Positions 6,840 through 61,000 of a stretch of DNA of 64,000 nucleotides are shown one piece after another (position 1 is the stretch's first letter; each line of letters starts with the position of its first letter). A program made the translations under genes and the position numbers. The notes under the pieces are model-generated. The model saw only the letters and a list, made by a program, of their open reading frames with translations. It had not been told where the DNA came from and did not search any database. The DNA lies in the NCBI GenBank assembly GCA_016432325.1, contig CP066684.1, forward strand, positions 96,001 to 160,000. Direction: 5' to 3'. The DNA comes from Candidatus Aenigmatarchaeota archaeon. GTDB taxonomy: Archaea > Aenigmatarchaeota > Aenigmatarchaeia > PWEA01 > JACQIF01.

Positions 6840-6883
6840 TTACTTTATGAATAGTTCAAAGAAAGTTTGAAACCGCCGTTTCC

Positions 6884-12727: not shown

Positions 12728-14809
12728 ATGGCCGGCGATAAGAAGAAAGGACCTTCTCCGGAAGAGATAAGACGGGAAGAGATTACGCGAATCCTGCGGG
12801 AAGAACGCATGCGGCTGCCCGTGCGCGAGTCGCAAGCCGCTCCTAACACGGCGTTTACGAGTAGGGAGTACCAGACGTTCATGGCGGAGGAGCGCTTCAG
12901 GGAGAAGCCGACCCTGTACGAGCGCGCAGCGCGCCTCGCCGGCCGTCTGAATCTGGAGCCCGACGCCGATACGAAAAAGCAGATGGAAGAGAACATAAAG
13001 TTCGCGCATCTTGACGTTACGCCTGCCGGAGCGTTCTCCCTTGCAATAGTAACGCCGATGCTGATAGCGGTCTTCGCGACTCTCGTGTTCTTCCTGCGGG
13101 TCGTCGGACTCACGGAGACGATGACTCTGTTCATGGGTTCGATTATCGCGTTTTACCATCTCTACAACTATCCGAAGAGCGCGGCCAAGATATTCCGCGT
13201 CAAGGCGGCGTCCGAAATAATACTTGCAGTAATCTACATGGTCATCTACATGCGTTCGTCTCCGAACCTCGAGGGCGCGATTAGATACGCGGCCGTCAAC
13301 CTGACGGGCCCGTTGGCGTACGATCTTCGCAAGCTCCTGTGGGACGTCGAAACGGGAAGGTACGCGACGATGGAGGACGCGCTCGATACGTACCTCTTGA
13401 GGTGGAAGACCAACGAAGAGTTTATAGAGTCGATAAATCTGATTCGCAATTCGATGGAGCAGCCGGAGTCGCGGCGCCACGCGGTTTTGGACGAGGCGGT
13501 GAACGTCGCTCTTACAGGAACGCGGGAGAAGATGCAGAAGTATTCGCAGTCTCTGAGAATGCCTGTGACGCTCATCCACACGATGGGCATCATCCTTCCG
13601 ATACTCATACTGGTTATGTTCCCTGTTCTGATTTTGTTCCTGGGAAAGCAGCTGAACCCGTGGGTTCTCGTGATCGGTTACGACGTCGTGTTGCCGATAA
13701 TAATCTACCTGCTGATTATGCGCGTGATGGAGAGCAGGCCCGTGGGGTTCTCCGTTCCTGACGTGTCTCTGCATCCGAAGTTCACGCCTCTCGGCAAGGT
13801 GAAAATCGGGGGGAAGCTCTACCAGATGTGGCCGTTCACAGCGGCGCTGACGTTCGCGCTCGTCGGGATATGCGCGTATTTCCTGGTGCCCGTGTACGAC
13901 AAGATAACCCTTGAGGCCCTAGGCCTTTCTGTGGCCGTGACCTGGGCGCTGGGCATCGGCATGATGGTCCACTTCCTGACCGGCACATCAGGACTGCTCA
14001 AGATACGCGGAGAGATAAAGAAGATTCAGGATGAGTTCGGCGAAGCACTGTTCCGTCTCGGAAACACGCTCTCTCTTGGAGCGCCTCTTGAAAAGGCGAT
14101 AGAAGACACCGTGCAGAAGTCCGCGGACCTGTCGATATCCGAGCTCTTCAGGCGCGTATTGAACAACGTGCGCCAGGGCCAGCTAAGCTTCGAGGCCGCG
14201 TTCTTCGACAAGCGCTACGGCGCGATATGGGACTATCCTTCGAAACTGATAATCAACGTGATGCACATCGTGATTGAAGCGACAAAGAAAGGGGTGCGCA
14301 TCGGCGCGAACTCGGCGATCGCAATTTCAAAATACATCCGCCAGATCCACGCCATAGACGAGGATCTGCGCGACATGCTTTCCGAGGCGACGACGAGCAT
14401 GCGATTCATGTCCGCGTTCCTCGGGCCTATGATAGCCGGCGTCACGGTCACGATGGCCGGCGTGATGATGCTGATATTCCAGCAGCTCGGCGCGAGTATC
14501 GCGGGCCTGCAGAACACGAACGTCCCGGGCTTCAGCCAGCTGCTGATAGGAGGCTGGGGAGAGTCCGTGGCGCAGATGCCCATCGCGGTCTTCCAACTCG
14601 TTGTTGGAATCTACATCCTTGAGATGATTTACCTCCTGTCGGTTCTGGAGATAGGAATAGAGAGCGGACCCGACGACATCGTGCAGATGCGCCACACCGC
14701 GGCGTGGTCTATATTAATAGGACTTTTGGTATACAGTTTCAGCCTCGTGATAACATGGTCCATCTTCGGAGCGTCTATACAATCCTTGATAACAGGAGGC
14801 GCGCTTTAG
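12728..14809 (+). CDS. Pilus membrane platform protein (TadB/TadC/ArlJ-like, two T2SSF-type halves)
   Basis: Two cytoplasmic domains (SSPNLEGAI; EFGEALFRLGN...GAPLEKA) each followed by TM helices; in the ATPase locus. Confidence 0.85.
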   Translation: MAGDKKKGPSPEEIRREEITRILREERMRLPVRESQAAPNTAFTSREYQTFMAEERFREKPTLYERAARLAGRLNLEPDADTKKQMEENIKFAHLDVTPAGAFSLAIVTPMLIAVFATLVFFLRVVGLTETMTLFMGSIIAFYHLYNYPKSAAKIFRVKAASEIILAVIYMVIYMRSSPNLEGAIRYAAVNLTGPLAYDLRKLLWDVETGRYATMEDALDTYLLRWKTNEEFIESINLIRNSMEQPESRRHAVLDEAVNVALTGTREKMQKYSQSLRMPVTLIHTMGIILPILILVMFPVLILFLGKQLNPWVLVIGYDVVLPIIIYLLIMRVMESRPVGFSVPDVSLHPKFTPLGKVKIGGKLYQMWPFTAALTFALVGICAYFLVPVYDKITLEALGLSVAVTWALGIGMMVHFLTGTSGLLKIRGEIKKIQDEFGEALFRLGNTLSLGAPLEKAIEDTVQKSADLSISELFRRVLNNVRQGQLSFEAAFFDKRYGAIWDYPSKLIINVMHIVIEATKKGVRIGANSAIAISKYIRQIHAIDEDLRDMLSEATTSMRFMSAFLGPMIAGVTVTMAGVMMLIFQQLGASIAGLQNTNVPGFSQLLIGGWGESVAQMPIAVFQLVVGIYILEMIYLLSVLEIGIESGPDDIVQMRHTAAWSILIGLLVYSFSLVITWSIFGASIQSLITGGAL

Positions 14810-23019: not shown

Positions 23020-23130
23020 ATTTGGGCGCAGACAACCCCACCAAAACCTTTAAAAAGACCTGTGTGGAACAGAAAGCAGTAAAATTGAAGGGTGTAATAC
23101 TCTGGTTTTACGTTAAGGAGTTGACAATCG

Positions 23131-23196
23131 ATGCCTGAAATTTCCGAAACAAGTTTCGTCATTCCAGCCATGGGAGGTTTGAGATATGCCTGAAAT
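23131..23196 (+). repeat. 66-bp leader repeat, copy 1 (20-codon uORF 23131-23193)
   Basis: 64/66 identical to 28374-28439. Confidence 0.9.
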
Positions 23197-23902
23197 CCCC
23201 GGAATGGGAAAACTGGGATACGACCGCGCAATAGTCACGTTCAGCCCCGATGGACGACTATTCCAAGTCGAGTACGCACGAGAGGCAGTTAAGAGAGGTT
23301 CGACTGCCGTAGGAATCACATTCAATGGCGGAGTCGTTCTGGCTTCCGTTCGCCTTGCAGACCCGCTGAGCGCGTCAGGCACCACGAACGAGAAGATACA
23401 GCAGGTAGACGATCACATAGGAATCGTTGCAGCGGGGCTCCTCGGAGACGCGCGCGTGCTCGTCGACAAGGCCCGCGTCAAGTCGCAGGTTCACAGAATA
23501 ACATATGACGAATCGATAGACGTTCCGGGTCTCGTCCGCTTCCTCGCCGACCTCAAGCAGGCTCACACGCAGTATGCCGGTCTGCGTCCGATGGGAGTAT
23601 CGTTCCTGATAGGAGGCGTCAACGATAATGCGTATCTGTTCGAAACCGATCAGGGCGGCTCGATATTCCAGTGGAACGCGCACGTCATAGGAAGAGGCGC
23701 GGACATCGTGCGCAAGGGATTGGAGAAGGACTGGAAGGCGGGCATGGACAGGAAGACTGCCATAGACGTCGCCGTACGCACGCTGAAGAAGGCCGAGAAA
23801 GACATATCGAAAGACAACATAGAAGTCGTAGTCGTCGACAAGGCAAAGGGATTCCAGAAGCTGTCTGGAAAGGACAGAACCGAGGCCTTGAAGAGTTGGT
23901 GA
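23186..23902 (+). CDS. psmA: Proteasome alpha subunit
   Basis: GYDRAIVTFSPDGRLFQVEYAREAV signature. Confidence 0.97.
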   Translation: MPEIPGMGKLGYDRAIVTFSPDGRLFQVEYAREAVKRGSTAVGITFNGGVVLASVRLADPLSASGTTNEKIQQVDDHIGIVAAGLLGDARVLVDKARVKSQVHRITYDESIDVPGLVRFLADLKQAHTQYAGLRPMGVSFLIGGVNDNAYLFETDQGGSIFQWNAHVIGRGADIVRKGLEKDWKAGMDRKTAIDVAVRTLKKAEKDISKDNIEVVVVDKAKGFQKLSGKDRTEALKSW

Positions 23903-24020
23903 GAAAATAGCATGCAGCCAAAGCGCCATTCCTTCTGTGGGTATCGGCGCGGAGGCAAAACGTAAAAACGAAACGCACGAAGCGTTTCAATCTTGCCGCG
24001 TTATGCGGCAAAGTGATTCG

Positions 24021-24719
24021 ATGGTAAGCACGGAGAAAGCGGTTGTTGCACGTCTAGAGTCACACGGGAAAAAGTTCGAGATACTCGTCGATCCGGACGC
24101 AGCGGTTCGGGTCAAGAAGGGAGACGACGTCACGGTCAAAGACCTCGTGGTGTATGAAAACGTCTACGAGGATGCAAAGAAGGGTACGCGGCACACCGAC
24201 GCGGACGTGCGTGCCGTGTTCGGCACGCAGGACTTCAAGGAGATCGCGTACCGCATAATCCGCAAGGGCGAAGTGCAGTTAACGACCGACCAGCGGAGGA
24301 AGATGAAGGAAGCGAAGGTCCTCGAAATTGCGGCGCTGATATCCAAGCGCGCCGTCGATCCGAAGACCAAGGCGCCCCATCCCGCGCAGAGAATCATAAA
24401 CGCGATGGAGCAGGCTCACGTGAATGTGAACGAATACGAGCCGGCCGTGTCGCAGGTGGAGCGCGTGATAGACGCGTTGCGGCCGATACTGCCGTTGAGC
24501 GTGGAACAGCTGGACTTGCAGGTTCGCATCCCGGCGTCGTACGTGGGAAAAGCGTACGGCCGCGTGCGCGATTTCGGCCACCTGAAAAAAGAGGAGTGGC
24601 GAAGCGACGGCTCATGGGTCGGCACGGTGGAAATTCCCGCCGGCATGCAGGGAGACTTCTACAGTCTCCTGAGCGGCCTGACTCACGGGGAAGGAGAGGC
24701 AAAGCCTCTCGCAAAATAA
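24021..24719 (+). CDS. Ribosome maturation factor SBDS/Sdo1
   Basis: MVSTEKAVVARLESHGKKFEILVDP, GEVQLT and PHP motifs; superoperon position. Confidence 0.95.
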   Translation: MVSTEKAVVARLESHGKKFEILVDPDAAVRVKKGDDVTVKDLVVYENVYEDAKKGTRHTDADVRAVFGTQDFKEIAYRIIRKGEVQLTTDQRRKMKEAKVLEIAALISKRAVDPKTKAPHPAQRIINAMEQAHVNVNEYEPAVSQVERVIDALRPILPLSVEQLDLQVRIPASYVGKAYGRVRDFGHLKKEEWRSDGSWVGTVEIPAGMQGDFYSLLSGLTHGEGEAKPLAK

Positions 24720-24745
24720 CGATCAAAACACGAGGTGTATGAAAG

Positions 24746-25492
24746 ATGAATGGAACTATGGAAGAGAACGTGGAGAGCGCGCCGGCGCCTATGGATCCCG
24801 GAAGCGTTCTGATTGCAAGCAACAAGAGTATCGTCGTACCGGGCGAGCTCATCGCCAAAGGCGTTGACTTCTTGCCGGGCAGCGGCACGTATAAGGAAGC
24901 CGGAGAAGTGCGCTCGAAGGTTCTGGGCCTCGTCCGCATAAAGAGCGACAGGCTCATCAGCGTCGTCCCTCTTTCTGGCCAGTACATGCCTTTCGCAGGC
25001 GACGGAGTGATCGCAGTCATCGCGGACGTTCAGATATCGTCCTGGATGGCCGACGTCAACGCGCCTTACGTGGCGTTCTTGTCGCTCTCCGAGGGCGTAG
25101 AGGAGTACGTCGACTTGCAGAAGTCTGACCTCACGCACTACTACGACGTGGGCGACGTGATATACGCCAAGGTGCTGAGCGTTTCGAAACGCAAGGACGT
25201 GAAGCTCACGATGAGAGATCGCATGTGTCGCAAACTTCACGGCGGCAACACGATGAAAATAACGCCGACGAAGGTCCCGCGCCTGATAGGCAAGGGCGGT
25301 TCGATGATAGAACTGATAAAGCAGAAGACCGGATGCCACATAATCGTCGGCCAGAACGGCCTGGTCTGGATAAAAGGAGAAAAACAGGATCTGGCCGCGG
25401 AAGCCGTGCTGCTCGTTGAACGCGAGAGCCACGTGGAAGGGCTGACGGATCGCATGACGGCCTTTCTCGATTCGATACAGCAGGTGATATGA
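24746..25492 (+). CDS. rrp4: Exosome RNA-binding subunit Rrp4
   Basis: IVVPGE; S1 plus KH domains (KVPRLIGKGGSMI, IVGQNGLVWI). Confidence 0.95.
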   Translation: MNGTMEENVESAPAPMDPGSVLIASNKSIVVPGELIAKGVDFLPGSGTYKEAGEVRSKVLGLVRIKSDRLISVVPLSGQYMPFAGDGVIAVIADVQISSWMADVNAPYVAFLSLSEGVEEYVDLQKSDLTHYYDVGDVIYAKVLSVSKRKDVKLTMRDRMCRKLHGGNTMKITPTKVPRLIGKGGSMIELIKQKTGCHIIVGQNGLVWIKGEKQDLAAEAVLLVERESHVEGLTDRMTAFLDSIQQVI

Positions 25493-25493
25493 T

Positions 25494-26264
25494 ATGAGCG
25501 AAGAACACAAGAAGATTATTGTTGGAGACAGAAGGCCCGACGGCCGCGCACTCGACGAGATGAGACCCATAACAGCCAAGGCGGGCGTGATTTCGCGCGC
25601 CAACGGCTCCGCGCATTTCGCCATGGGCAGTACCGTCGCAATCGCCGCGGCATACGGCCCGCGCGAGCTGCACCCCAAACACCTGCAGGACCCGGTCCGT
25701 GCGTATCTCAAGTACGTCTACGCCATGGCGCCGTTCTCCACGCAAGATCGCGTAAAGCCCGGCCCGTCAAGACGCTCGACTGAGATAAGCGAAGTCTCTC
25801 GACAGGCGTTCAACTCCGTGATATTCCTGGAGGAGTTCCCCAAGGCAGGGATTGAAGTCTTCGTCGAGATACTGCAGGCCAACGCCTCGACGCGATGCGC
25901 AGGAATAAACGCCGCGTCAATCGCGCTCGCCGACGCAGGCGTGCCGATGACCGATCTCGTATCCTCCTGCGCCGCAGGCAAGGTCGACGGAAAGATAATC
26001 CTGGACGTCGCGGGAGAGGAAGACACGGAAGGAGAAGTGGACATGCCGATAGCGTACATACCCCGCAAGGACGAGATCGCGCTGCTCCAGATGGACGGCC
26101 TGCTGACTCTCGACGAGTTTAAGGAGGCGCTTGAACTGGCGAAGAAAGGCTGCATGCAGATACACGAAAAGCAGGTGGCCGCGCTGAAGGAGCGCTACGT
26201 GCGCGTCGCCTCTGAGATAGCGAAGAAGGGGCCTGTGCGCGAGAGCGCAGAAGAGGTGGCTTAA
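25494..26264 (+). CDS. rrp41: Exosome catalytic subunit Rrp41
   Basis: RPDGR, YGPRE, RRSTEIS, TRCAGINA and LQMDG motifs. Confidence 0.95.
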   Translation: MSEEHKKIIVGDRRPDGRALDEMRPITAKAGVISRANGSAHFAMGSTVAIAAAYGPRELHPKHLQDPVRAYLKYVYAMAPFSTQDRVKPGPSRRSTEISEVSRQAFNSVIFLEEFPKAGIEVFVEILQANASTRCAGINAASIALADAGVPMTDLVSSCAAGKVDGKIILDVAGEEDTEGEVDMPIAYIPRKDEIALLQMDGLLTLDEFKEALELAKKGCMQIHEKQVAALKERYVRVASEIAKKGPVRESAEEVA

Positions 26265-26335
26265 ATGATAACCAAAATCTTGAAACTCTGTTTCAAATTT
26301 TCGTACCAGAGGTGGATGATATGATAACGAAAATC
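26252..26335 (+). repeat. Duplicated translation-initiation region flanking a GAAAC/GTTTC hairpin; 19-aa coupled ORF 26265-26324
   Basis: 26252-26279 vs 26308-26335 match 24/28 (RBS plus MITKI). Confidence 0.8.
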
Positions 26336-27109
26336 GACAAGGAATTCATAAAAACGCTCGCCCGCGAAGGCAAGCGCGAAGACGGCCGCGCGTTCGACCA
26401 GTTCCGCGACCTGAAAATCGAGACGGGCTTCGCCAAGAACGCAGAAGGCTCGGCGCTCGTGACTCTCGGAGAAACGCGCGTGCTCGCAGGCGTGAAGCTT
26501 TCGGTCGGAACGCCGTTCGCCGACACGGCGAACGAGGGCGTGCTGATGGTGAACGCAGAGCTTGGCCCGAAGGCTTCGCCTGAATTCGAGACAGGCCCTC
26601 CGAAAGAAGGAGCCATCGAACTGGCCCGCGTCATAGACCGCGGCATCCGCGAATCGAAGTGCATCGATCTGGAAGCGCTTTGCATCACGCCGAAGGAAAA
26701 GGTCTGGATGGTGTCGGTGGATATAGACCCGATAAACGACGGCGGGAACATACTGGACGCCGCAGGCATAGCCGCGATTGCCGCACTGCACGACGTCAAG
26801 ATACCGAAACTCGACGAGGATGTAAGACCAATATTCGGCACGAACTCGGGAAAGCTCAAGCTGCGTCACATACCGATACCCGTCACGACATTCAAGGTCA
26901 ACGGGGCGCTCGTGATGGACCCTGACTTCGAGGAAGAAGCGTCTGCCGAGGCGCGTCTGACCGTGACGAGCGTCGAGGGTTTCCTCTGCGCGATGCAGAA
27001 GGGCGGCGAGAGCAACTTCAAGACAGAAGAGGTAGTGCGTGCCGCAGAGACGGCGTACGCCAAGGCGACGGAACTGCGTGAAGTCGTAAAACAGGCCGTC
27101 GGCCTTTGA
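26321..27109 (+). CDS. rrp42: Exosome subunit Rrp42
   Basis: REDGR, AEGSALVTLG, ELARVIDRGIRES, DGGNILDA and QKGG motifs. Confidence 0.95.
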   Translation: MITKIDKEFIKTLAREGKREDGRAFDQFRDLKIETGFAKNAEGSALVTLGETRVLAGVKLSVGTPFADTANEGVLMVNAELGPKASPEFETGPPKEGAIELARVIDRGIRESKCIDLEALCITPKEKVWMVSVDIDPINDGGNILDAAGIAAIAALHDVKIPKLDEDVRPIFGTNSGKLKLRHIPIPVTTFKVNGALVMDPDFEEEASAEARLTVTSVEGFLCAMQKGGESNFKTEEVVRAAETAYAKATELREVVKQAVGL

Positions 27110-27179
27110 CGTTTTACACTTCCCGCAGGAAGCTGTATATGCTTAAATAGCCTACATTGAAACAGAATCACGTGATGAT

Positions 27180-27434
27180 ATGCCGGCCAAGAAGATAGGC
27201 TCTGCAGGACGCTTCGGTTCGCGCTACGGACGCAAACTGCGCAAGGACGTCTCTGATATTGAGGCCGTTCAGCGCGCTTTCCACGAATGTTCGTCGTGCC
27301 GCAAGGTCGCGGTCAAGCGCGTTGCGTTCGGAATCTGGCAGTGCCGCTCGTGCAATCGCAAGTTCGCCGGAGGCGCGTTCAAGCCTCAGGCCCATCCTTT
27401 CAAAGAGACGATACAGAAAGCGGCGGGTGCGTAA
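27180..27434 (+). CDS. rpl37ae: 50S ribosomal protein L37Ae (eL43)
   Basis: GRFGSRYG, CxxC...GIWQCxxC...FAGGA. Confidence 0.95.
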   Translation: MPAKKIGSAGRFGSRYGRKLRKDVSDIEAVQRAFHECSSCRKVAVKRVAFGIWQCRSCNRKFAGGAFKPQAHPFKETIQKAAGA

Positions 27435-27435
27435 T

Positions 27436-27576
27436 ATGCCTTACAAATGCCTTTCGTGCAGGAAAGAAATATCGACAGAAGACGTGAAGAAGCGCGTGCG
27501 CTGCCCGTACTGCGGCTACAGGATTCTCGTCAAGACGCGCGCGGCCGTGAAAACAGTGCACCTCAAGACTGGTTAG
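27436..27576 (+). CDS. rpoP: RNA polymerase subunit P (Rpo12)
   Basis: YKCLSC...RCPYCGYRILVK. Confidence 0.9.
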   Translation: MPYKCLSCRKEISTEDVKKRVRCPYCGYRILVKTRAAVKTVHLKTG

Positions 27577-28066
27577 CCTTCACGGTCAGCACCGCTTTCA
27601 AAACGCCTGACGACGGCCAATACGATTTTACTTCGAAGTCCGTGTCCATCTCGAATTCCGGAGAAGTCCACTCGCTCTGAGGCGGAACCTTCGGAGAATT
27701 GAACTTTGCGCTTTTGAAGTCCAGACCGCCATAATAAACGTCTTCGGTCGTCTTGAACTTTATTTTTGCCTTCGTCTGTGCTATCGTGATGCTCGAGATG
27801 CGCGTGCCGTCCTCCCTGTAGAAGCCGTTGTCGTCTGCGAGGACCGTGTACGTCACGGTCTCGGGAGGCTGTTGCTCCTGTTGGGTCCGATTCTGTTCCA
27901 CCAGAGGTTCCTGCGGCGTTGTGTTCTGCTGCGCGGTTTCGTTGGCCATTTCCTGCTGTTCTATCTCTCCAGCGGCGTCTTGCCGAGCCTCTTCGCTCGG
28001 CGTCTGGTAGCCGCCTGTGCAGCCTGCCACGAGAACCAGAAGTGCAATAAAGGCGAGCTTGTTCAT
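27563..28066 (-). CDS. Putative lipoprotein
   Basis: MNKLAFIALLVLVAGC lipobox; Q/E-rich linker; beta-sandwich-like C-terminus. Confidence 0.75.
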   Translation of the reverse strand: MNKLAFIALLVLVAGCTGGYQTPSEEARQDAAGEIEQQEMANETAQQNTTPQEPLVEQNRTQQEQQPPETVTYTVLADDNGFYREDGTRISSITIAQTKAKIKFKTTEDVYYGGLDFKSAKFNSPKVPPQSEWTSPEFEMDTDFEVKSYWPSSGVLKAVLTVKANQS

Positions 28067-28114
28067 ACGCCACGTTGGCAAGCCCTATATAAAAAACCCG
28101 CGCGTACCAAACGC

Positions 28115-28333
28115 ATGCGCGCGACACTTGAGATAAAGACGAAGCATCCGAAGGCCGTTCTGGAAGCGATAGCCGTGGACGAAGAGACGTCGAAGCGCGT
28201 TCGCATCAGGCCAGGCGCGAAGGACGGCGTGTTGCGCGTTGTCATAGAGGCCGACGACTTCTCTGCGTTGCGCGCCGGCGTGACGACTTACATGCGTTTG
28301 GCCAAGGCAGCGCTTGCGGGTCTGGGCGAGTGA
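28115..28333 (+). CDS. pcc1: KEOPS subunit Pcc1
   Basis: LRVVIEADDFSALRAGVTTYMRL; conserved position before pfdB. Confidence 0.85.
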   Translation: MRATLEIKTKHPKAVLEAIAVDEETSKRVRIRPGAKDGVLRVVIEADDFSALRAGVTTYMRLAKAALAGLGE

Positions 28334-28373
28334 TTTCCCGAACGTATAAATAGCTGCATATTCGTTTCGTTTT

Positions 28374-28439
28374 ATGCCAGAAATTTCCGAAACAAGTTTC
28401 GTCATTCCAGCCATGGGAGGTTTGAGACATGCCTGAAAT
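28374..28439 (+). repeat. 66-bp leader repeat, copy 2 (20-codon uORF 28374-28436)
   Basis: 64/66 identical to 23131-23196; TATAAATA at 28345. Confidence 0.9.
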
Positions 28440-28794
28440 TCCCCAGCAAGCGCAGCAGATGATAATGCAACTGCAGGCCGCGCAGCAGCAGTTGCAGGCG
28501 TTCGCCATGCAGAGGCAGTCGCTCACCATGCAGAAGCACGAGATTGAAAAGGCGACAGAAGAACTCACGAGCGCGAACGACAAGGAAGACGTCTACAAGC
28601 TATCCGGTCCCATAATGGTCCGTTCGACAAAATCAAAACTTCTGGACGAACTCAAGGAGCGCATAGCAAAGATAGATTCCGGAATCAAGCGGCTTGAAGA
28701 CCACGAGAAGAAGATAGCCGAAAAGGCGCAGGAGAACCAGACCAAGCTCGAAAAGATGTTTGCCCCGCCTGAAACCAAGGGACAGGCCGGTTAG
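28429..28794 (+). CDS. pfdB: Prefoldin beta subunit
   Basis: QQQLQ...VYKLSGPIMV coiled-coil/hairpin; superoperon position. Confidence 0.93.
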   Translation: MPEIPQQAQQMIMQLQAAQQQLQAFAMQRQSLTMQKHEIEKATEELTSANDKEDVYKLSGPIMVRSTKSKLLDELKERIAKIDSGIKRLEDHEKKIAEKAQENQTKLEKMFAPPETKGQAG

Positions 28795-30170: not shown

Positions 30171-31178
30171 TTAGTCGTGCACGAGAGGCGCAATCTTGCG
30201 CGGTTCAAAGCCGTTGCCGTTGGTGGTGTCCTTGTGTCTAATTTCCACCCACCCCGCGACGCGCTCGGCAATAGCATCTGGAGTGAAGCCGGCCTTGCGG
30301 TACAGGTCTTTCGGCGAGCCGGTCTCCCCCTTCTCGGCCCCTATTCTGCGCATGTGGGTCGGATACCTCTCCGAAAGCACGTCAGATACACTGCTCCCCA
30401 GCCCGCCGTCTATGCTGTGGTCTTCTGCTGTTACGACAAGACCGGTCTTCCTTGCATACTGTTCGATAAGCAAAGAGTCTATCGGTTTTATGGACGAGAT
30501 GTTTATCACCGCCGCACTCACGCCAGATCCCTCCAGCAGTGCTGCGGCTCCCAGCGACGGTTCTATCAGCGCCCCATAGCTCATTATCGCTACGTCGTCG
30601 CCGTCGCGAAGCACCTCGCCCTTTCCTATAGACCATTCCCAGTTGTCGTCGTGCAACGTCAATACTTCTGCGCGGGTCATGCTCATCGTCGCGGGTCCCG
30701 CGTATTTCGGGTCTTTTACGTTTGCGAGTTTGACTGTCATCTGTTTCGCTTCAACCCAGTCCGCCGGGCATAACACGGTGTCCGAGATCGCCTTGTTGTA
30801 TGATAGATAGTTGAGAACCTGGTTGCTCACGCCGTCTTGTCCGACCTGCAAGCCGACATGGCTGCCTACCTTGCAGACGTTGAGCTTCGCGCGCCTGACT
30901 ATCTGTTCGAACGGTTCGGCGGCGAGTTTGGAGAATCCCTCGAAGGTGGCGTAATAGACGCGTTCGCCTGTACGATGCGCCGCACCAGCCGCCATTGTGA
31001 CGCTGTCCTGTTCCGCTATGCCCGCATCAACGATGCGCCGCGGGTACTGTGCAGCGAAGTCCGCGAGGGACATGGAATTGCCAAGGTCCGATACGTAAAC
31101 GCGGATATTGTGCGTCTTGGCCGCTTCCACAGCGCCCCGACCGAGGCCGCTTCTCATCGATTCGTGCTGGCCCTTCAT
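30171..31178 (-). CDS. Transketolase, C-terminal subunit
   Basis: DAGIAEQ, GQDGVSNQ, SIKPID and TAEDHSIDGGLGS motifs. Confidence 0.9.
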   Translation of the reverse strand: MKGQHESMRSGLGRGAVEAAKTHNIRVYVSDLGNSMSLADFAAQYPRRIVDAGIAEQDSVTMAAGAAHRTGERVYYATFEGFSKLAAEPFEQIVRRAKLNVCKVGSHVGLQVGQDGVSNQVLNYLSYNKAISDTVLCPADWVEAKQMTVKLANVKDPKYAGPATMSMTRAEVLTLHDDNWEWSIGKGEVLRDGDDVAIMSYGALIEPSLGAAALLEGSGVSAAVINISSIKPIDSLLIEQYARKTGLVVTAEDHSIDGGLGSSVSDVLSERYPTHMRRIGAEKGETGSPKDLYRKAGFTPDAIAERVAGWVEIRHKDTTNGNGFEPRKIAPLVHD

Positions 31179-31372
31179 GCGCGACTCCCTCCTTCTCCGC
31201 GCTGCACGGGAACCGCAGTCCCCGGCATTTTCGAACAGCGGTTCGAAACTTTACGAATAGCTATTCGTAAACTTGCGACCGCGTCGCAAGAGTTCGACCG
31301 AAGGCCGAACATGTCGGGAAGCTCCACTTCCCGTACAGGGAAGGATGAAACCGCGTGTTTCGTGCCCTTCAT
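31175..31372 (-). repeat. Multi-hairpin element (31202-31338) traversed by a 65-aa ORF coupled to both transketolase genes
   Basis: Six hairpins; 23-nt identity with the 7684-7772 element; ATGA overlaps at both ends; starts MKG like the downstream gene. Confidence 0.75.
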
Positions 31373-53862: not shown

Positions 53863-54210
53863 TTAACCCCTCTGTAGTTCTCGTTTCAAGGATTTATATA
53901 GCCCTATATCCAGCCCGTCCATCTTCTGGACGGTCTCAGCCTCTATGTGCAGTGCGCCTTCCGTGGAACGGACGCGGCCTATGACACGCACGACAGAGCC
54001 CTGTACGGCCGGTTTGGCGTCCGGTTGGAGGAGGACCTCGATGCTGTCCGTTCCATCGTCCAGAACGAGCCGCTCCGTGTTCGCGTTGACCACCGTGCCG
54101 AGGATGGCGACGCGTATGTCACGCTCGTTGACGTCTGTTACGTTCTTTTCTTTCATCGGTACGCGCTTGAACGCGAACGATTCACCATAGTCTTCTGTCA
54201 GTTCTGGCAA
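53863..54210 (-). CDS. Small OB-fold protein (RPA subunit-like)
   Basis: RVAILGTVV, LDDGT and VRVIGRV motifs; TTG start at 54210 after RBS AGGTGG. Confidence 0.75.
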   Translation of the reverse strand: MPELTEDYGESFAFKRVPMKEKNVTDVNERDIRVAILGTVVNANTERLVLDDGTDSIEVLLQPDAKPAVQGSVVRVIGRVRSTEGALHIEAETVQKMDGLDIGLYKSLKRELQRG

Positions 54211-54264
54211 CCTAACCACCTTACTGCCGGAAACTTGAAACCCGCGGTTTCATAGTTCGGGCAT
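54199..54264 (-). repeat. Leader element with duplicated start (MPEL/MPEL) and GAAAC-CGCGG-GTTTC hairpin
   Basis: ATG CCC GAA CTA at 54264 vs TTG CCA GAA CTG at 54210. Confidence 0.7.
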
Positions 54265-58750: not shown

Positions 58751-61000
58751 CTACTCCAGAATTATCGGTTGCTGGCCGTAAGGACCGTATGTGCGGCCTT
58801 TGAGGGAGGATATCTCGTTCTCCAGTCTCTCGATGCGGGCCAAGAGCTCTGCCGTGTGTTCGGGGCCTGTGCGCTCGGCCTCTGCAGCGACACGCGCCTT
58901 GAGCCTCTGCACTTCTTCGAGTTCTGCGCGCAGGCGACGCGCGTTCTGATCGAGGTCGCTGTGGACGCGCTGCACGTCGCTCTCTATCTGCCTCCTTATG
59001 TCGTCGACGCTGGCCACGGCACGCGCCTGTATCTTCTCTATCTCGCTCTCCGCCTGCCTCTTCTTGCGGTCCAGCTCTTCCGACAGCGCGAACAGCACGT
59101 TTTCGACCTTTGCCGTTGCGAGAGCCTCGGCGTCCTGCGTAAGTATTTCGCGCACGCTCTCCTTGAGGTTTCTCTGGACACCTCCGTATTTTTCGTCCAT
59201 TCTGCCTTCCAGCGCGTGCGCGCGGCTGTCGACGCGCTGCGCAACCATCGGCTCCAGGCCGGTGCGGAACTGTTCAAGGCGCGCCTTTGTTTCTCCGCGT
59301 ATCTCTTGCAGGCGCGCTTCGAACTTGCGCGATGCGGCCTCTGTGGCGCCGCGTACCTGTCCTGTCTGTTCGCGTACCTCAGAACGCATCGCATCGAGGG
59401 ACTCTTTGAACTCCTTGCGAAGGTTCTCCTCGCCCGTCCTCTGAAGGGCGAGCACGTTGTCTATCGCGTCAAGTTTCCTCTGGAGGTCTGAAATTGAATT
59501 GAAGTGTTCTCTCGTTATGTCGGCCAGAGACGAAGCGACAGAGGACTGCAGGGCCTCTGCCTTTTCCGCGTGTGATTGTTTGAGATAATCGAGCTGCTTG
59601 TTGTATTTGCCGTCCATGGCGTTCACGTGCGAACGCAGGGACTCTGCGATGCTGATGACCTCTTTCTTCATCGCTTCGGCCGTCTCGACGACCTGTTTTT
59701 CCAGTTCGCGGTCGGCTATCTCGGCGCGCGTCCTGGCGTTTTCAACAGAACCTTCGAAAGCCCTCATCTGGGAGTCCATCGCGTCGAACCTCTGCTGGTG
59801 TTGGACGGTGGAGTCGGCAACGGCCCTGTTCACCTCGCGGGAAAGCTTTTCGTCAAAGCCCTTGTTTTGAAGGTCCACGAGGTTTTCGAGATATTCTATC
59901 TTGCCGTCTATCTTTTGGAATACTCCTTTCTCGTCGAGCTGCTGCTCAACGAGCGCCGCGATTCCCGAGCGCAGCGACTCCTTCTCCGAATTGAGGTCCT
60001 TTATCACGGCTGCGAGCGTTTCGTTGACGTCCTTGAAGTTGCCGCTTATCTTCAGGAGCTTCGTGTTCATCGATTCCATCATCCTGTTTTCCAGAGCGGA
60101 CTCGCTCTCGGCCATCGCCGTTTCCATGCGTTCCAGCCTCCCGGCAAGCCCGTCGTTGGCGACGCGCAGGGCGGAATCCATAACTTCCAGCCTTCTCGCG
60201 AGTTCGATGAGTTTGGCCCTCTGTTCCTCGGACACGCGCGCCGTGTACAGCTTCTCCTGTTCGAGCTCCTTGTCCATGGAGGCTTTAGCGCGCGACACCG
60301 AAGCCTCCGCGGCAGAACGCACGGCATCCTTCATCGCGTCTGTCGCTTTCGCGATTTCAGCGGAGACGTACTTCTTGGTGCCCGCCTCCTGCAGCGACGC
60401 GACATTCTCCAGGGAGGTCATCCTGGTTGTGATGTCGCTGACGACAGCGCGATTCTCGTCAAGCGACGCCCTGAGCGCAGCGGCGAGTTCGGTCCGCCTT
60501 TCGGCAAGAGTCTTGTCCAGGGCGTCTATGGAAGAGTCTATCTTCTTGTTCAGCGCGGCAATTCCTGCGGCCATTTCGCGTTCCACGACTTCGCGCGTTT
60601 CCTTATCGCTTTTTCCAGACTGCGCTTCGATGCGATCGAGCCTTATCTGAAGATCCCTGAGTTCGGTGGCGCTGTCTGCGCTCGTCTGTTTCAGCCTTGC
60701 GAACGCGTCCTTCCTGAACGCATCGAAATCCTGCCGTATGGCCGAGGTTCCCTTTGCGATGCCCTCGGCAACGCTTTTTGACACATCGGCTTCGAACCCT
60801 CCGACTGTGTTCTCGAGCCTGCGGAGCTTGTCTGAAACCTCCTTCCTGAGGACGTCCAGATGCGCTGCCTGTTGGCCTTCCGTTTCGGACAGGCTGTCCG
60901 CCTTCCTCTCGATGTCATCGAGCCTTTTCTGAACGGCCGTGACCTTCTCAGTGACAGACTCAGTCACGTCCACGAGCCGCTTGACTATGCTGTCTTCCAT
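58751..61000 (-). CDS. Long coiled-coil protein
   Basis: 749 aa, almost entirely heptad/helical, no NTPase motif. Confidence 0.75.
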   Translation of the reverse strand: MEDSIVKRLVDVTESVTEKVTAVQKRLDDIERKADSLSETEGQQAAHLDVLRKEVSDKLRRLENTVGGFEADVSKSVAEGIAKGTSAIRQDFDAFRKDAFARLKQTSADSATELRDLQIRLDRIEAQSGKSDKETREVVEREMAAGIAALNKKIDSSIDALDKTLAERRTELAAALRASLDENRAVVSDITTRMTSLENVASLQEAGTKKYVSAEIAKATDAMKDAVRSAAEASVSRAKASMDKELEQEKLYTARVSEEQRAKLIELARRLEVMDSALRVANDGLAGRLERMETAMAESESALENRMMESMNTKLLKISGNFKDVNETLAAVIKDLNSEKESLRSGIAALVEQQLDEKGVFQKIDGKIEYLENLVDLQNKGFDEKLSREVNRAVADSTVQHQQRFDAMDSQMRAFEGSVENARTRAEIADRELEKQVVETAEAMKKEVISIAESLRSHVNAMDGKYNKQLDYLKQSHAEKAEALQSSVASSLADITREHFNSISDLQRKLDAIDNVLALQRTGEENLRKEFKESLDAMRSEVREQTGQVRGATEAASRKFEARLQEIRGETKARLEQFRTGLEPMVAQRVDSRAHALEGRMDEKYGGVQRNLKESVREILTQDAEALATAKVENVLFALSEELDRKKRQAESEIEKIQARAVASVDDIRRQIESDVQRVHSDLDQNARRLRAELEEVQRLKARVAAEAERTGPEHTAELLARIERLENEISSLKGRTYGPYGQQPIILE

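Follow-up and report, generated by a model that had tools for sequence, protein, structure and literature searches.

Two copies of a hairpin-containing start cassette in front of psmA and pfdB in an Aenigmatarchaeota archaeon

In the 64,000-nt stretch of Candidatus Aenigmatarchaeota archaeon DNA analysed in this study (the window; GCA_016432325.1, contig CP066684.1, positions 96,001 to 160,000 of the forward strand), the gene of the proteasome alpha subunit (psmA, 23186-23902, 238 aa; Pfam PF00227 and PF10584) and that of prefoldin beta (pfdB, 28429-28794, 121 aa; PF01920) enclose genes for SBDS, Rrp4, Rrp41, Rrp42 and a Pcc1-like protein. This region is the classical archaeal exosome/proteasome superoperon. 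It is part of a genome that consists of one 874,869-bp contig, has a G+C content of 56%, is 90% complete and, going by protein names in its nearest relatives, belongs to the Aenigmarchaeota (DPANN). The initial annotation, made from the letters alone, had pointed out that psmA and pfdB are preceded by nearly the same leader, and this observation holds: positions 23131-23196 and 28374-28439 are identical at 64 of 66 positions. The two mismatches are base 6 (T/A, a synonymous CCT/CCA difference) and base 55 (T/C). Between them lies an exact core of 43 nt (23142-23184 and 28385-28427), for which no match was obtained in 100 dinucleotide shuffles. As shown below, the two leaders are two copies of one member of a family of hairpin start-cassettes.

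Each copy is composed of five parts: the word ATGCCNGAAAT (X1), a hairpin, an 11-mer (X'), a Shine-Dalgarno (SD) sequence GGGAGG (SD2) and the word again (X2), which opens the long open reading frame (ORF). The period is 55 nt and the direct repeat 11-12 nt long. At psmA, all on the plus strand like the parts at pfdB, X1 (ATGCCTGAAAT, 23131-23141) is followed by the hairpin CGAAAC-AA-GTTTCG (23145-23158, with its 12-nt core at 23146-23157), by X' (ATTCCAGCCAT, 23161-23171), which is complementary to both X1 and X2 at 9 of 11 positions, by SD2 (23172-23177, 8 nt before the true start) and by X2 (23186-23196). At pfdB, X1 (ATGCCAGAAAT) occupies 28374-28384, the hairpin 28388-28401 (an exact match to the 12-nt core, at 28389-28400, in the hairpin search), X' 28404-28414 and SD2 28415-28420, the last two (28404-28420) lying inside the exact core, and X2 28429-28439. 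Both main proteins agree with their relatives at the N-terminus, PsmA in its N-terminal length. In each copy X1 is also the start of a 20-codon upstream ORF (uORF; 23131-23193 and 28374-28436) that reads MPEISETSFVIPAMGGLR(Y/H)A* and ends with a TGA within the ATGCCTGA of the main gene, at +5 relative to its start. Palindrome, complementarity and uORFs were found as initially described, and so was the distance of 29 nt from the first base of the TATA box TATAAATA (28345-28352) to the pfdB copy.

The two starts of each gene differ in age. By PsmA identity, the closest relatives among public assemblies were L074 (84%), L073 (82%), probably G001 (81%) and L075/L076 (76%); G001 belongs to the same genus and is 73% complete. 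The first ATG of each pair stands at the ancestral place. In psmA it follows, at 10 nt, the sequence AAGGAG (SD1, 23115-23120), which is located where the cassette-free G001 and L075 carry GGAGGT. In pfdB it follows the TATA box at 21 nt; the same order of TATA box, 21 nt and ATG is present in G001 and in the L117 and L118 contigs of the L073 and L074 lineages, and X1 has the position of the leaderless start of G001. Thus the module was inserted behind the old start, to which it added a second one. In G001 psmA reads GGAGGT, 8 nt, ATGGCTGAAATTCC, and pfdB reads TATAAATAGCTG, 17 nt, ATGGCAGAGATACC and is leaderless; the extra 55 nt are absent from both, and in the psmA alignment with G001 the insertion, downstream of the X1 ATG, measures 53-55 nt. 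Empty sites were observed in this genome at all four loci checked (psmA, pfdB, L19e and L7Ae), while orthologues of S12 and ThrRS were not found in its 73%-complete assembly. The psmA site of L075 is likewise empty, and the distant L072, found by the PsmA search, is without a cassette.

The relatives also account for the common N-terminus MPEIP. It had been suggested that the copy event overwrote the first five codons of one gene. However, the proteins of G001, where neither gene bears a cassette, begin with MAEIPGMG (PsmA) and MAEIPPQA (PfdB), and PfdB of more distant relatives begins with M-x-E-I-S/P-P-E-A-Q. MxEIP was thus present in both proteins beforehand and no codons were overwritten; from these alignments, MxEIP is taken to be ancestral in PsmA and in PfdB, and the shared N-terminus to be an accidental agreement of about four codons. 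The resemblance of the two leaders stems solely from their coinciding start words (ATGCCNGARATYCC, MxEIP). At gene starts ATGCCNGAAAT occurs only in psmA and pfdB, and its other five occurrences in the genome are inside ORFs.

The other proposal of the initial annotation, a recent copy event, is confirmed, and psmA was the source. In psmA of L073 and L074 a diverged cassette was found with SD1 and an ATG at X1, GGAGG at the place of SD2, TTG at X2 and the same 12-nt hairpin core, which is invariant in the three lineages. It is this orthologous conservation of an unusual hairpin with a 2-nt loop that identifies psmA as the donor of the pfdB leader. The distance from X1 to X2 is 52, 53 or 55 nt in psmA of the three lineages, so that frame and peptide of the uORF are not conserved while the hairpin is kept. 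The outer pair of this hairpin is C-G in the genome studied here and T-A in L074. In pfdB, by comparison, the leaderless start is occupied by a cassette in the L073 lineage (L117, which shares an 80-kb contig with L073) as well as in the L074 lineage (L118). The hairpins differ from that of psmA: L117 has GAAAC-CGCG-GTTTC, and the hairpin of L118 is degenerate (the 5' arm is misaligned for both in our alignment A2). In its right half, the L118 cassette closely resembles those of psmA in L073 and L074. The simplest reading of these sequences is that both genes carried cassettes before the lineages split and that sequence passed between the psmA and pfdB cassettes more than once. Most likely, the psmA cassette replaced an older pfdB cassette by gene conversion via the shared start word, and did so recently, as the copies differ at two of 66 positions. 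The pfdB X1 retains its own CCA and its X2 has CCT as received, which places both conversion junctions inside GAAAT. Ectopic gene conversion between dispersed short homologies is an established process, and a 44-nt tract bounded by identical words of 11-12 nt and copied between loci 5.2 kb apart resembles it. What differs from it here is the origin of the homology: two unrelated genes happen to share their first codons, and both already carried cassettes.

Beyond this pair, the whole 875-kb genome was searched for the pattern GAAAC-N2-5-GTTTC, and 54 hairpins were detected. With a spacing of N3-5, 49 hairpins were found against one for the reversed-pattern control. For 21 of the 54 hairpins, an SD sequence and an ORF start (ORF length 70 aa or more) lie 10-70 nt downstream (20 random sets: mean 3.95, maximum 7). 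Flanking direct repeats of at least 9 nt are present at 14 of the 54 sites but at 2% of random sites (Mann-Whitney p 3e-6), and an extension of the stem past the hairpin at 20 of 54 but at 3.6% of random sites (Mann-Whitney p 2.5e-11). In 14 cassettes the start codon is inside the repeat, with a period of 51-64 nt, mostly 52-56 nt; in others the repeat covers the SD sequence only. Altogether, at least 20 genes carry a 51-56-nt module directly behind the ancestral start. In most cassettes the flanking start word and X' are complementary to each other, and since the start word varies from gene to gene the family is not a repeat of constant sequence. In several cassettes the similarity of the X1 side to native coding sequence extends into the 5' arm of the hairpin. 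X1 retains the ancestral context, and the interior between X1 and X2, apart from the tip of the hairpin, looks derived from the gene's own start, as an inverted copy with an SD sequence behind it. Housekeeping genes of diverse kinds are served by the cassettes: ferredoxin, L19e, a HerA-like ATPase, TtuA, an ASCH protein, L7Ae, a nitroreductase, Pop5, FKBP, ThrRS, a class II aminoacyl-tRNA synthetase, Sec61-beta, S17e, S12, a small OB-fold protein, Rrp42, PsmA and PfdB. A full-text literature search of limited extent yielded no description of such cassettes.

A sister cassette is located in the same operon at rrp41/rrp42 (plus strand, 26265-26335; X1 at 26265, hairpin 26282-26294, true start at 26321). 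Its uORF begins directly after the rrp41 stop codon (TAA), and its own stop forms an ATGA overlap with the start of rrp42. The stem TTGAAAC/GTTTCAA corresponds to TTGAGAC/GTCTCAA in the orthologous cassette of L074, a compensatory change from A-T to G-C, and the L073 site is empty. At this locus a 28-nt stretch comprising the SD sequence and five codons is repeated around GAAAC-TCT-GTTTC with a period of 56 nt.

For the mode of working of the cassettes we infer a relay. Each of the two uORFs has an initiation signal of its own, SD1 in psmA and the leaderless-type X1 at TATA spacing in pfdB. Ribosomes would load at X1, via SD1 in psmA and via the 5'-terminal AUG of a leaderless transcript in pfdB, translate the 20-codon relay uORF through the hairpin, terminate at the TGA that lies within ATGCCTGA and, aided by SD2, start again at X2. 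Direct entry of ribosomes at SD2 would be possible as well. In this manner the old signals would continue to drive expression of the gene. The partner of X' may be X1, in which case the hairpin is capped, or else X2 or SD2. Termination-reinitiation in Haloferax and E. coli takes place only with overlaps or very short distances (PMC10666635, PMC6728339). Among 11 out-of-frame cassettes, 8 stop the uORF between -10 and +5 of the true start, compared with 26% of virtual uORFs at cassette-free starts (p 0.0017). This position of the stops, the retained X1 ATG, the ATGA overlaps at Rrp42 and transketolase and the need of reinitiation for an overlap or a short gap lead to the relay model. The cassettes resemble known termination-reinitiation coupling (PMC6728339, PMC10666635) in that a short upstream ORF, initiated from a signal of its own, terminates on the true start or within a few bases of it, and the cassettes at Rrp42 and at a transketolase locus described below use its classical ATGA overlap. 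They differ from it in that the upstream ORF, instead of being a gene, came about as a by-product of the inserted cassette; it begins with a copy of the start word of the downstream gene and reads through a conserved hairpin.

Several features suggest that the cassettes are under more constraint than junk would be, namely the persistence of the hairpin, the retention of the X1 ATG and the position of the uORF stop. The X1 ATG was kept in all eight cassettes compared, with about a third of the neighbouring positions changed; in pfdB and Rrp42 its retention could be explained by constraints of the promoter or of the upstream gene. Judged by the sequences of the relatives, selection may act on the hairpin structure and not on the uORF peptide. 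Taken as a whole, the combination of start-cassettes, conversion from psmA to pfdB and relay appears to us the best explanation, and a reasonably probable one.

A number of points weigh against it. In psmA and pfdB the uORF stops 5 nt past the ATG, inside the gene, which is not the ATGA or TGATG overlap of classical coupling. Nor is the relay universal: of 14 cassettes, two have the same frame as the gene, and in three the uORF terminates 20-43 nt too early. (An avoidance of in-frame cassettes was considered separately and, with these 2 of 14, was not significant.) The complementarity of the hairpins could be maintained by template-switch correction of quasi-palindromes and not by selection. 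Finally, an earlier pfdB cassette in the lineage studied here is deduced from two relatives and is no more than probable, a fresh insertion of a psmA-derived copy being less likely but conceivable.

It is tempting to speculate on a more far-reaching scheme, which we regard as tentative and rather less probable than not. A so far undescribed, target-templated DNA process would write the hairpin, an inverted copy and a direct copy of the start behind the old start, at a site chosen by pairing of X'. The transfer from psmA to pfdB would then be homing to the only other start with the same word, and relay uORFs, whether the host's or the element's, would keep the invaded genes translated.

Rather doubtful in our view is a fresh guided insertion, in which a mobile psmA cassette whose X' arm pairs with the target homed to pfdB and the 11-nt repeat is a target duplication. 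The complementarity of X' to the flanking start word in most cassettes and the presence of ATGCCNGAAAT at just these two gene starts would fit, and the four empty sites out of four in G001 show that cassettes were gained or lost. However, a pfdB cassette already exists at the same spot in two related lineages, and replacement is therefore simpler than insertion. Moreover, no set of cassettes was observed that share a core and differ in their arms, repeat lengths range from 9 to 28 nt, unlike the outcome of a fixed staggered cut, and no enzyme is known.

Of similar but slightly lower standing, and unlikely in our judgement, is co-regulation, in which selection would keep the leaders identical to place translation of both genes under a single trans-acting factor or condition. 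In its favour, the leaders are near-identical over 66 nt though the psmA cassettes of the relatives have diverged to about 60-65%, both genes are part of a conserved superoperon, and the hairpin is conserved. A search of the genome with the 66-mer returned only the two copies, however, and added no members to a regulon. No such hairpin was found at the starts of the thermosome, psmB and pfdA genes, and the 90%-complete genome yielded no HSP20. The same type of cassette stands before functionally unrelated genes, the very situation that had been named as incompatible with a regulon, and the shared stress-response cassette considered in the initial annotation is thus unsupported. In the L073 lineage psmA and pfdB differ in their hairpins and SD regions, and recent conversion accounts for the identity without selection. 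The cassette is no switch specific to proteostasis. A 24-mer taken from the core had no match in public genome contigs or in metagenome contigs, and a BLAST search with an 80-mer against 60 relatives gave only matches at chance level (E above 0.01). As an RNA the 66-mer does not fold more stably than shuffled sequences (z -0.41 to +0.45), and Rfam gave no match at E up to 1; a stable RNA structure or a known cis-regulatory RNA was rejected on these grounds for the 66-mer alone.

We consider it improbable that X1 is the real start and that the cassette is removed from the message by enzymatic splicing or skipped by a ribosome hop from X1 to X2, as in T4 gene 60. The bypass cassette of gene 60 and the mitochondrial byp elements are inserts of about 50 nt linked to mobile DNA (10.1101/2022.08.31.505936; PMC8211752). 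The likeness is considerable: matched words stand at both ends, the hairpin follows directly after X1, and an SD sequence lies near the 3' end of a gap of about 50 nt (GGGAGG, 8 nt before X2), as in gene 60 (10.1101/2022.08.31.505936). In addition, a weak start codon, TTG, opens X2 in L073, L074 and L118 and in one cassette of the genome studied here, and all four internal differences between X1 and X2 in this genome are synonymous (six synonymous against three non-synonymous with the relatives included, a small sample). In contrast to gene 60 and byp, the matched word of the cassettes includes the start codon. The codons after X1 are TCC GAA ACA, neither stop nor rare or hungry codons, in psmA and pfdB, and with only four codons before the would-be take-off, and four residues before the hairpin, a nascent-peptide signal is impossible. 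Hopping is also not needed, since X2 has a complete initiation signal of its own. Some repeats hold only the ATG and one further base, or no start codon at all, and X1 and X2 have diverged in the relatives. With respect to splicing, no canonical bulge-helix-bulge was present at psmA, pfdB or most cassettes, against a random background of about one per site. For an archaeal intron of this type all junction pairs were scanned (two 3-nt bulges, 4 bp apart), and none with flanking helices of at least 2 bp was found at psmA or pfdB.

That one leader was wrongly placed before the second gene by the assembly is very improbable: short-read assemblies do break at the repeat, but the copies differ at two positions outside the shared unitig, the depth of this unitig is raised, a single contig joins copy 1 to copy 2 in four runs, and independently assembled relatives have cassettes at both genes. 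The DNA was found in these four runs, groundwater metagenomes of one study that are possibly the source of the assembly, and no RNA run was listed for the stretch. Their Logan contigs end at the repeat, where a de Bruijn assembler necessarily breaks. The 48-nt unitig common to both copies (23137-23184) has about 1.3-1.8 times the depth of its flanks, and one contig of 5,255 nt spans from inside copy 1 to inside copy 2 in agreement with the assembled order. No joint that skips the 55 nt was seen in the Logan contigs of the four runs.

The family was also compared with REP/REPIN and MITE elements. As in these, dozens of short palindromic units in a small genome are gained or lost between relatives, with conserved stems and free loops. 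In contrast to them, the arms of the cassettes consist of the start sequence of the local gene, and the cassettes sit inside gene starts and not between genes and include a duplicated initiation region. Only stems of 5 bp are shared across the family and the 66-mer has two copies, so many near-identical copies are not found. REPINs reportedly go together with RAYT transposases, whereas the cassettes are without a known transposase, no search having been aimed at one.

The hairpin load varies widely among related Aenigmarchaeota; the genome studied here, G022, G023, G031 and G032 are rich in cassettes and others poor. In G022 and G031 (L077-L096) the GAAAC...GTTTC hairpin is one unit of longer repeats that combine 4-5 different hairpins, occur at many loci with high identity and often end just before an SD sequence and ATG. 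A multi-hairpin insert was observed in the window on the minus strand (31175-31372), where 194 nt with several hairpins separate two transketolase subunit genes. An open frame of 65 codons (MKGTKH...) runs through it and forms an ATGA overlap at either end, first with the stop of the preceding gene and then with the start of the following one. Copies of ATGAAGGGC stand at the two ends. Further hairpins of the same type are located in the window at 6869, 7754, 8224, 12677, 16182 and 31347, and on the minus strand at 53863-54260. The one at 54237 precedes the gene of the small OB-fold protein, with X1 ATGCCCGAACT and the true start at X2 TTGCCAGAACT; the uORF has four codons and ends in the TGA of ATGAAAC. 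In the whole genome, many repeats of 60-100 nt are strings of mini-hairpins (for example at genome positions 13790-13915, 211256-211375 and 60864-60979). One stretch of 156 nt occurs twice with 97% identity (704885-705040 and 874614-874769) and contains an ATG and an apparent signal-peptide coding sequence; its second copy adjoins a run of N at the contig end. ARAGORN detected no tRNA in the window (1-64000) and three in the 875-kb genome, whose tRNA genes are probably heavily interrupted.

Gene callers place the start of cassette-bearing genes wrongly. The database PsmA of the genome studied here (P0001) begins with MGYDRA and has 229 instead of 238 aa. PfdB of two relatives (P0122, L117 1501-1830; P0124, L118 1501-1836) was called from an internal ATG about 10 residues short, so that the start MPEIPQQAQQ behind the cassette is missed. 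A further PfdB relative, P0123, has a call that extends upstream.

The initial interpretation thus stands in part: the recent copy event is upheld, and the overwritten codons and the stress cassette are not, and no new proteostasis regulon is revealed. If the reading favoured here is true, the starts of essential genes in a streamlined symbiotic archaeon accommodate dozens of small insertions, which under the relay model would be tolerated since every insertion brings along a spare start signal and a relay reading frame. Only at psmA and pfdB do two genes have the same cassette. This pair indicates that cassettes can be exchanged between loci via as few as 11 shared bases, which bears on the spread and the uniformity of the family.

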